Positions 18,272-19,651 of a stretch of DNA of 51,217 nucleotides are shown piece after piece. The DNA comes from an uncultured Bacillota bacterium (GTDB lineage Bacteria > Bacillota_I > Bacilli_A > RF39 > UBA660): assembly GCA_937926935.1 (NCBI GenBank), contig CALBBI010000057.1, positions 1 to 51,217 on the forward strand, written 5' to 3'. Position 1 is the stretch's first letter, and every line of letters starts with the position of its first letter. Both the position numbers and the translations under genes were made by a program. The notes under the pieces were generated by a model that saw nothing but the letters and a program-made list of their open reading frames with translations, ran no database searches and was not told the DNA's origin.

Positions 18272-19651
18272 TTATTTATCAATAATAATCGTTATTTTGT
18301 GTTCTAAAGGTTCGTCAGTTTCATTGTAACTTATTCTAATTCCTTGATTTTGGAGTTTAGTTATAGTTTCTTTTATCGTGGTAATGGAATTATTTAGTGA
18401 ACTTGAAACTTGGTTAATTGGTTCAAGTGATTCCACCATACTCATGGGGTCAAATAATTCTTCTTGTTTAGGTGTTGATTCTTGGTATGCTGGAGTAGTA
18501 TTATTTGGTTCCGGAGTGAAGAAACGATTATTTGGGTTTAATTCAATTGGGGTTTCGAAAGTATTAAAATCAGGAGCTGGGGTTGCAATGGTTTCTTCTT
18601 GTTTTGGAGTTGGGTCAAAGATTTCAATATCTTTTTTAGGTTGTTGTTCTGGTGTAGTTAAAGTATCGAAAGAAGTTGGAGTATCAAAGTTGAAATTTAA
18701 CTCAGGAGCACTATTCATATTAAAAGTATTTTCAGCAGAGAAGGCATTGTTCCCATTAACATTAGCCGGAGTACTTTCTAAGGTATTAAAGAATTTATTG
18801 ACTGGACTTTGGTTGTCTTCAGTAGGCATGTTAGACATTATATCCATGCTATTTGGAACATTAATTGTTGTCATATTGCTAGGATTTTGAGGTAGGGAAC
18901 TACTATAGTCAGTTAGAACATCTTCTGGTACCATCATATTCGCCACATTTCTATTTTTATTTGGATTGATATCTACAGCTTTATCTTTGATTTCTTCAAC
19001 GTTTGGATTGATATCTACTAAAGGAATTTCTTTATTAGTAGTGTTTTTCTTTAGAACTTGTTTTAGTTCTTGGTCTAGTTGTCTTACAGTCATACGGTCA
19101 GTTATAATGCGGTTAAGCCATTCTTTTTGGGCAGTTTTACTATCTAGTGATAGAAGGGCACGGGCATGACGTTCGCTTATTCTTCCTTCTAAAAGAGCTT
19201 GTTGGACTTCATCATCAAGATTTAGAAGACGGAGTTTATTGGCAATAGCAGATTGTGAGATACCCATTTTTTTAGCTAGTTGTTCTTGAGTTAGATAGCC
19301 TTTATCAAGAAGATTTTTGTAGCTTCTAGCTTCTTCAATTGGGGTTAGATCTCTTCGTTGGATATTTTCAACTAATGCTACTTCGGCACTGGAGTTATCG
19401 TCAATATTAGAAATTACAGCAGGAACTGTAGTGAGGCCAGCCATTTGGGATGCTTTATATCTTCTTTCGCCAGCGATTATTTCATATTTACTGCCAAGTT
19501 TGCGTAATACTAAGGGTTGAATTATCCCATGTTCTTTTATAGACGCCGCTAGTTCTTTTAGACCTTGATCGTCGAAAGAAAGTCGTGGTTGAAACCTATT
19601 TGGGATTATATCGTCGATATTTACCTGTACTATTTGTGATTCCATTTGCAT
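18272..19651 (-). CDS. noc: ParB-family CTP-dependent DNA-binding protein, Noc-like, with a roughly 200-aa low-complexity insertion
   Basis: ParB N-domain ([27 protein letters not shown]). HTH [26 protein letters not shown]...[10 protein letters not shown]. Residues at the ParB/Noc specificity positions read Q-K-N-R. It lies immediately downstream of rsmG, as B. subtilis noc does. Residues about 205-415 are N/P/T/F-rich. The last 40 aa ([37 protein letters not shown]) look like the C-terminal dimerisation domain. An in-frame TGA 9 nt upstream of the ATG fixes the N-terminus. Confidence 0.75.
   Translation of the reverse strand: [459 protein letters not shown]

Follow-up and report, generated by a model that had tools for sequence, protein, structure and literature searches.

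The window analysed here, a stretch of 51,217 nucleotides from an uncultured Bacillota bacterium (assembly GCA_937926935.1, contig CALBBI010000057.1), is the replication-origin region of a genome with 29% GC. The genes rnpA-yidC-jag-mnmE-mnmG-rsmG follow each other on one strand and dnaA-dnaN-recF-gyrB-gyrA on the other, with dnaA at 26.3 kb; 13 DnaA boxes lie upstream of dnaA and 4 between dnaA and dnaN. Directly preceded by rsmG (19841..20557), in the position of noc, stands a gene for a ParB-family protein of 459 amino acids (aa), which is the subject of this report (Table 1). A first-pass annotation had drawn attention to this gene as Noc-like, and had asked whether its product is a single ParB/Noc protein of dual specificity or a Noc that reaches the membrane or divisome through a disordered linker. 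The observation is confirmed by our analysis and the interpretation is partly supported. The window protein is a non-canonical Noc (nucleoid occlusion protein), a variant form of this lineage that a large clade has conserved.

Table 1. Features of the Noc-like gene, its neighbours and the candidate DNA sites in the window
Feature	Position in the window	Strand	Basis or remark
Noc-lineage ParB-family gene, 459 aa	18272..19651 (stop codon 18272-18274)	-	Open reading frame (ORF), Pfam, NCBIfam
ParB_N domain, binding cytidine triphosphate (CTP), residues 6-98	19358..19636	-	Pfam PF02195, E = 7e-34
HTH_ParB DNA-binding domain, residues 101-199	19055..19351	-	Pfam PF17762
Predicted disordered linker, ~210 aa, residues 206-415	18407..19036	-	AlphaFold2 predicted local distance difference test (pLDDT) mostly below 50; composition
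Duplicated VDINPN, exact 17-bp direct repeat	18960-18976 and 19002-19018	-	Within the conserved ..A.DINP element, residues 208-232
Motif VNKFFNTLE, residues 284-292	18776..18802	-	Family consensus NKFFNxLE(D)E; motif frequencies
Motif ELNPNNKFF[TQ]P, residues 371-380	18512..18541	-	Alignment conservation
Noc-type C-terminal dimerisation domain, residues about 416-459	18272..18406	-	AlphaFold2, TIGR04285
Ribosome-binding site (RBS) AAAGGGG (19662-19668) and in-frame TGA (19658-19660)	19658..19668	-	Read directly from the sequence
XRE-type HTH gene, 73 aa	18024-18245	+	Between the Noc-like gene and the penicillin-binding protein (PBP) gene
Class A PBP gene	15919-17871	+	Downstream neighbour of the Noc-like gene
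Eight perfect parS 16-mers, TGTTTCACGTGAAACA	35195-36044		Spaced 73-167 bp apart
Five perfect Noc-binding site (NBS) 16-mers, TATTTCCCGGGAAATA, predicted targets	Starts 37856, 40319, 42059, 48076, 48127 (span 37856..48142)		

Profile score, phylogeny, C-terminal domain, gene order next to rsmG, fit to a Noc-NBS complex and the presence of NBS sites together place the window protein in the Noc lineage and not with Spo0J. The best NCBIfam model is TIGR04285 (nucleoid_noc), which matches the native protein with 284.8 bits over model positions 1-203 of 255. Once the linker is deleted the match runs from end to end (positions 1-255, 300.1 bits), and the C-terminal 59 residues alone match positions 209-255 (E = 0.0015). 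Two Spo0J controls reached 239-245 bits on the same model, their match ending at position 216 without the C-terminal part. The C-terminal domain is modelled by AlphaFold2 with a pLDDT of 86-91 as a helix (419-435) and two strands (440-446 and 451-457). The best sequence matches in the PDB were the Geobacillus Noc structures 7ng0/7nfu (197 bits), against 182 bits for B. subtilis Spo0J. The modelled DNA-binding domain, with a pLDDT above 90, superposes on the Noc-NBS complex 6y93 with a template modelling (TM) score of 0.89-0.92 and a root-mean-square deviation of 1.3-1.9 A, the fit to the ParB-parS complex 6s6h being poorer (TM 0.69-0.75). In a neighbour-joining tree, a small distance tree of 27 sequences over the first 190 residues, the family to which the window protein belongs was monophyletic in 100/100 bootstraps, and the family plus four Noc sequences stood apart from all Spo0J/ParB in 84/100. 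The protein is nevertheless not a canonical Noc, since it lacks the membrane helix and does not reach the curated family cutoff.

The ORF, Pfam matches and alignments bear out the position of the gene after rsmG and the intact ParB N-domain described at first pass. The QPR, GERR (IIAGERRY, residues 58-65) and ENIQRRDL boxes are intact, and QPR, GERR and ENIQRR are invariant across the family. Sequence alignment with two Noc proteins of known structure (7ol9 from B. subtilis, 7nfu from Geobacillus) and with the Spo0J of B. subtilis (6sdk) gave the same four specificity residues as the earlier reading, Q-K-N-R (Q133, K139, N144 and R161, equivalent to Caulobacter positions 173, 179, 184 and 201). 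The reference sets given there, QKKR for Noc and RTAG for ParB, agree with the published ones (PMC7383237). According to the same work, specificity is switched by Q173 and R201, binding is licensed by a single Lys, whether at 179 or at 184, parS-binding variants in a deep mutational scan always retain R173, and dual parS/NBS binders mostly carry T or S at 201 (PMC7383237). The window protein has the Noc combination (Q173, R201 and a Lys at 179 and/or 184), with Asn instead of the usual Lys at 184, and not the Spo0J combination of R173 and G201; the Spo0J controls read RT(x)G. Q-K-N-R is likewise found in a Noc of Bulleidia that has a normal N-terminal peptide (MRKSIFELFD...) and lies in a canonical rsmG-noc-soj-spo0J operon. 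To judge from these sequences, Asn at 184 is no sign of dual specificity. Because Q173 and R201 are NBS-specific in mutational scans, and because the Bulleidia QKNR Noc stands beside soj-spo0J, a dual parS/NBS role of the window protein, the first of the two possibilities raised earlier, appears unlikely.

The start codon is the ATG at 19649-19651, with the in-frame TGA 9 nt upstream, and the 190-bp spacer up to rsmG contains stops in all three frames and encodes no Noc-like peptide. Residue 5 of the protein aligns to residue 26-28 of the Noc structures, whose N-termini we checked in the PDB: MKHSFSRFFGLGEKEQE (B. subtilis, 7ol9) and MKHPFSRLFSFGEKEQE (Geobacillus, 7nfu). The ~26-residue segment that holds the amphipathic helix for membrane targeting in canonical Noc is therefore missing, and from this alignment the window protein is a natural equivalent of the N-delta-26 truncation of Jalal et al. 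The LG(K/R)GL peptide by which Spo0J stimulates ParA is not present either. The absence of an N-terminal peptide and the upstream TGA were thus correctly seen at first pass; the count of 12 residues before IPNRFQPR was not, the actual number being 15. Across the family the spacing is nearly constant, 118 of 121 proteins having 16 residues before PNRFQPR. According to the literature the N-terminal segment of Noc is extremely conserved and needed for function, and in B. subtilis removal of 10 residues abolishes function (PMC4331003). Reading of the TGA as Trp was considered and ruled out, as several other stops lie upstream and TAA or TAG is the stop codon of the genes sampled. A tiny ORF (MVAKKFNIEYY, 19691-19726, minus strand) is in frame with the Noc-like gene, but four stops lie between the two; it probably arose by chance.

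The long-linker family is not alone in having lost the N-terminal peptide, because the same loss is seen in another Noc, of 258 aa (locus L073, 6200-6976; also L074 and L075). That protein follows rsmG and begins directly with the ParB N-domain, a stop codon and a strong RBS lying upstream; it reads QKKR and scores 325 bits on TIGR04285, above the cutoff. Unlike the window protein it has a short linker without NKFF motifs, and soj-spo0J lies 3 kb away in the order rsmG-noc-DUF1307-LytR-soj-spo0J. The Bulleidia sp. Noc (L040), which also follows rsmG, differs from the window protein by its short linker without NKFF motifs, its N-terminal peptide and the soj-spo0J pair next to the gene. With the Noc proteins of B. 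subtilis and Geobacillus thermoleovorans (7ol9, 7nfu, 7ng0, 6y93) the window protein shares its place after rsmG, the ParB-type CTP N-domain, the Noc-type C-terminal domain, a recognition helix with Q173, K179 and R201, an identical NBS 16-mer in the genome and its group in the tree. It differs from them by the missing membrane helix, the Asn for Lys at 184, the score below the curated cutoff and ~210 disordered, motif-bearing residues in place of a short linker. Spo0J/ParB proteins (6sdk, 1vz0, 4umk) have the same fold and CTP boxes and 47-50% identity over the first 200 residues, and a perfect parS array lies in the window; unlike them, the window protein has Q173/R201 for R173/G201, a C-terminal domain of Noc type, no LGKGL peptide and no adjacent ParA.

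The family is widespread. Our set of homologues consisted of the 120 top database matches listed (thus at least 120), plus 37 genome loci. Coverage of the protein is at least 54% in all of the 120 listed and 97-100% in 115; their lengths run from 288 to 516 aa and their identities to it from 48 to 98%, and QKNR is found in 119/121 proteins. The closest genome is that of Coprobacillus sp. CAG:605 (95% identity). A scan of genomes found the gene in about 37 labelled uncultured Bacilli, 'Tenericutes' or Erysipelotrichaceae, all members having the short N-terminus and the Noc-like C-terminus, with total lengths of 316-514 aa. The order rsmG, Noc-like gene and convergent PBP gene is conserved across the clade. 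By its MnmG identities, which range from 64 to 82%, the clade is coherent and deep. The only cluster name found for the family, 'parB-like nuclease domain family protein', is uninformative.

The linker and its conserved motifs

The first-pass estimate of about 200 disordered residues before a Noc-like C-terminal segment was accurate. The linker is rich in N (14%), E (10%), P (10%) and D (9%), and also in T. All motifs listed earlier (FDP, FNTFETP, NFNFDTP and the duplicated VDINPN with its 17-bp repeat) are present, the second copy of the repeat starting at 19002 where it had been put near 19001. A short helix at residues 218-224 is modelled with a pLDDT of 62-72.

Conservation was read from an alignment of 36 diverse members, in which six short motifs of the linker are conserved, NKFFNxLE and LNPNNKFF being the most notable. 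The islands are the ..A.DINP element, MMVPED..TDYS (239-250), NKFFNxLE (285-292), an aromatic position at 310, IEIFD (342-346), ELNPNNKFF[TQ]P and (L)FDPM (399-403). The conserved columns include P210, V212, P216, I221, D227, N229, Y249, F287, F288 and F310 in the N-terminal part and E343, P373, N374, N375, F377, F378, P402 and M403 in the C-terminal part. Among these, no variation is seen at N375, F377 and F378 of ELNPNNKFF[TQ]P or at P402 and M403 of (L)FDPM, and conservation reaches at least 90% at P373 and N374. Two [KR]FF motifs occur in 93 of 117 members, and NKFFNFLEDE is present one to three times in distant members. The linker is thus predicted to be disordered, yet by its conserved islands it is not random. 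When the linker and C-terminal domain were used as a query against 1.84 billion representatives, 15 proteins were found, with match positions compatible with family members or fragments; this search returned no other protein family with the region.

DNA sites near the origin and the question of a second ParB

As noted at first pass, perfect parS and perfect NBS sites both lie nearby. The eight parS copies fill the 1.06 kb that separate the stop codon of gyrA (35181) from the signal recognition particle RNA gene (36242-36337), and would form an unusually dense chromosomal centromere array. Several copies have extended palindromic flanks (e.g. caaTGTT...AACAttg). The NBS 16-mers are identical, including the flanking T and A. 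Together with a one-mismatch site at 37972, the NBS matches with up to 2 mismatches number six, versus 0.19 expected, and the counts of both parS and NBS are far above shuffled expectation. Four of the NBS sites are covered by conspecific contigs; three of these stay perfect (40319, 48076 and 48127) and the site at 42059 has one mismatch. Perfect NBS sites near oriC were also found in five other clade genomes. In the window they lie inside dnaX, holB and pth, with a pair in the metG-tatD spacer, and in relatives (L010, L028, L037 and L041, near 5900 and 7340) in the jag-mnmE spacer and at the mnmE-mnmG junction. All NBS sites seen, in the origin-proximal DNA of the window and its relatives, are close to oriC.

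Gene calls agree with the earlier statement that no soj/spo0J follows the Noc-like gene, its neighbours being the XRE and PBP genes on the other strand. There is no second ParB and no ParA Walker motif in the six frames of the window, and neither a second ParB nor a ParA in the 8-kb extensions that conspecific contigs provide on each side (in total ~67 kb around oriC). The claim that this is the only ParB-family gene holds for these ~67 kb and, in about 40 genomes of the clade, for 10 kb to either side of the gene; as a statement about the whole genome it overreaches. Among 45 related loci scanned, only the Bulleidia locus had both a second ParB and a ParA.

The lack of a neighbouring soj-spo0J carries little information, because other lineages of Erysipelotrichales keep this pair far from rsmG. 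In Thomasclavelia and relatives (L050-L062, L078-L089) it belongs to a block (nrdD-nrdG)-pssA-psd-soj-spo0J-...-gdpP-rplI-dnaB, and in one organism this block is followed by tdk-prfA-prmC. The named Spo0J hits in the protein database came from Thomasclavelia, Faecalibacillus and Holdemania. The hits are of little use for the present clade, to which these lineages are not closely related: in the one organism of the hit set that was compared, the carrier of P0424 (locus L080), PrfA shares only 58% identity with that of the window. Faecalibacillus encodes both Soj and Spo0J, according to cluster names. The QKNR Noc of Bulleidia and the N-terminally short QKKR Noc of L073 each coexist with soj-spo0J. 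The main indirect argument is that a protein with Q173 and R201 is not expected to read eight perfect parS sites; a separate Spo0J is probably encoded elsewhere in the genome. A published COG table gives presence or absence for the ParB COG as a whole and does not separate Noc from Spo0J.

Two unusual records were met among the Spo0J relatives. One is a 539-aa protein (P0430) with ParA and ParB domains together, the other a 90%-identity cluster (that of P0416) mixing a 255-aa Soj and a 290-aa Spo0J of Faecalibacillus. Adjacent soj and spo0J overlap by 8 nt in related loci, so it is plausible that both records come from read-through or fusion calls.

Proposed mechanism and alternative explanations

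Taken as a whole, the data are probably best explained by an orthologue of Noc, found in a large clade of gut Bacilli that are low in GC and mostly uncultured, with motifs of the linker replacing the N-terminal helix and a separate Spo0J serving parS. A mechanism can be outlined on the basis of the ParB/Noc clamp model (PMC8429893, PMC4331003). By analogy with Noc and ParB, the window protein would nucleate at NBS sites, bind CTP, close at the N-domain and slide along DNA as a clamp, the linker and the C-terminal dimer closing the far side of a much enlarged DNA-holding compartment. The linker motifs, above all NKFFNxLE and LNPNNKFF, would take over from the lost helix as the link between the DNA-bound clamp and its target. 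The target may be the membrane, reached through a weak amphipathic motif made multivalent by spreading, or a protein of the division or replication machinery. In canonical Noc the helix is masked by the N-domain as long as CTP is not bound; with the effector placed in the linker, this gating would be altered or lost. A canonical Spo0J, distinct from the window protein and encoded beyond the region seen, would serve the eight parS sites beside gyrA. Of the two possibilities first put forward, a Noc reaching its target through the linker appears the better supported, because the linker carries conserved short motifs.

Some features of the first NKFF motif suggest a link with the membrane helix. 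Its helical hydrophobic moment (0.56) is the maximum of the linker and similar to that of Noc N-terminal peptides. We compared motifs by an ungapped position-specific matrix scan, a 15-column HMMER model of the motif having given meaningless scores. The best match of the NKFF matrix in both B. subtilis and Geobacillus Noc is the membrane-targeting segment (SRFFGLGEKEQ and SRLFSFGEKEQ), with per-window p values of 1.5e-4 and 6.6e-4, respectively, against 349,000 decoy windows. NKFFNxLE thus weakly resembles the helix lost from Noc, and the motif may be an element for membrane binding that was moved or evolved anew, or else a protein docking site; we regard this as a lead, not a finding.

Several observations weigh against the explanation given above. 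The matrix scores of the Noc helices are negative, the p values become roughly 0.03-0.14 per protein (per-window p multiplied by ~217 windows), and the two matching Noc sequences are homologous to each other. The peptide of the Bulleidia Noc has no match to the matrix. With its net acidic charge, the motif is poorly suited to an anionic membrane. AlphaFold2 confidence is only marginally raised at the motifs, which are not docked on a folded domain. Both profile scores of the window protein, native and with the linker removed, are below the curated NCBIfam Noc cutoff of 315 bits. Finally, there is no Spo0J/Soj in the ~67 kb around oriC or near the gene in the clade genomes covered, and two Spo0J queries of the protein database yielded no Spo0J linked to a clade genome.

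If the motifs are a new tether, the effector part of Noc would be modular and movable, its contact with membrane or partner could become independent of the autoinhibition that CTP gates in Bacillus, and ParB-type clamps would tolerate a very large DNA-holding compartment. The interest of the system is that the DNA-binding and CTP parts of Noc are retained, together with its sites, by a large natural clade which has dropped the helix and conserves short linker motifs instead. F287/F288 and F377/F378 are precise residues open to mutation.

The alternative that survives best, although we think it unlikely, is that this relative of Noc has no part in membrane-linked nucleoid occlusion and acts on DNA only, near the origin, in the control of replication initiation or in origin organisation, its linker motifs serving self-association or the binding of replication proteins. 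The absence of a helix whose shortening inactivates B. subtilis Noc (PMC4331003) would fit such a role, as would the short QKKR Noc of L073, also devoid of the peptide. It would further agree with the position of the NBS sites, all close to oriC (37.9-48.1 kb, with dnaA at 26.3 kb, and the jag-mnmE spacer in relatives); but with ~67 kb of the genome seen, this clustering may be a sampling effect. The Noc of S. aureus reportedly controls replication initiation, as stated in the title of a paper (PMC5540599). On the other side, the FF motifs look more like membrane- or partner-docking motifs than like low-complexity sequence of the sticker type.

Distinctly less probable is that the window protein is the sole ParB-family protein of its clade. 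In that case Spo0J and Soj would have been lost and a protein of the Noc lineage, maybe helped by Asn184, would serve both the NBS sites and the parS array, with origin segregation and loading of the SMC (structural maintenance of chromosomes) complex through parS, reaching its partners by linker motifs and not by N-terminal peptides. The absence of any other ParB-family gene and of ParA from the DNA covered would agree with such a loss, as would the closeness of the NBS cluster to the parS array (both within 13 kb, beside oriC) and the small genomes of the clade (single contigs of 1.19-1.26 Mb); ParA is lacking in 3/7 Erysipelotrichia genomes of the published COG table. However, all parS-binding variants of the published scan have R173 and most dual binders T or S at 201 (PMC7383237), against Q173 and R201 in the window protein. 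Moreover, the same Q-K-N-R occurs in Bulleidia beside soj-spo0J, the LGKGL peptide of Spo0J is missing from the window protein, and eight perfect canonical copies of parS are what a canonical ParB would maintain. Were the genome indeed without Spo0J, the case would be much more interesting, Noc acting as a centromere-binding protein and thus taking back the ancestral job of ParB.

The last alternative, an assembly error, a frameshift or a decaying gene, which the low-complexity composition and the 17-bp direct repeat might suggest and which the first-pass annotation had named as fatal to its reading, can safely be set aside given the family-wide conservation of architecture, N-terminus, QKNR and gene order: more than 150 homologues from independent assemblies share the architecture with the reading frame intact (120/120 of those listed and the 37 genome loci), length changes among members are whole codons, conspecific strains are 94-98% identical over the full length, and the region contains conserved motifs and is followed by a conserved, confidently folded C-terminal domain.

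Neighbouring genes

Related loci (L001-L004 and L063-L072) have no XRE gene at the corresponding place, and in the window it would therefore be a species-level insertion. Sporulation genes are found in the region (window 5531-6433 and 45845-46315; also L076 and L090), including those for SpoIID, SpoIIR, SpoVT/AbrB-like, SpoVG, YabP, YabG-like and CotJB/CotJC proteins. From its gene content the clade looks like spore-forming, wall-bearing Bacilli, though several relatives are labelled 'Tenericutes'. Two ORFs without a Pfam match flank argS on the minus strand, one of 118 aa (15459-15815) and one of 146 aa (13384-13824); they keep their positions in related loci (13679-14035 and 15827-16267 in L001).

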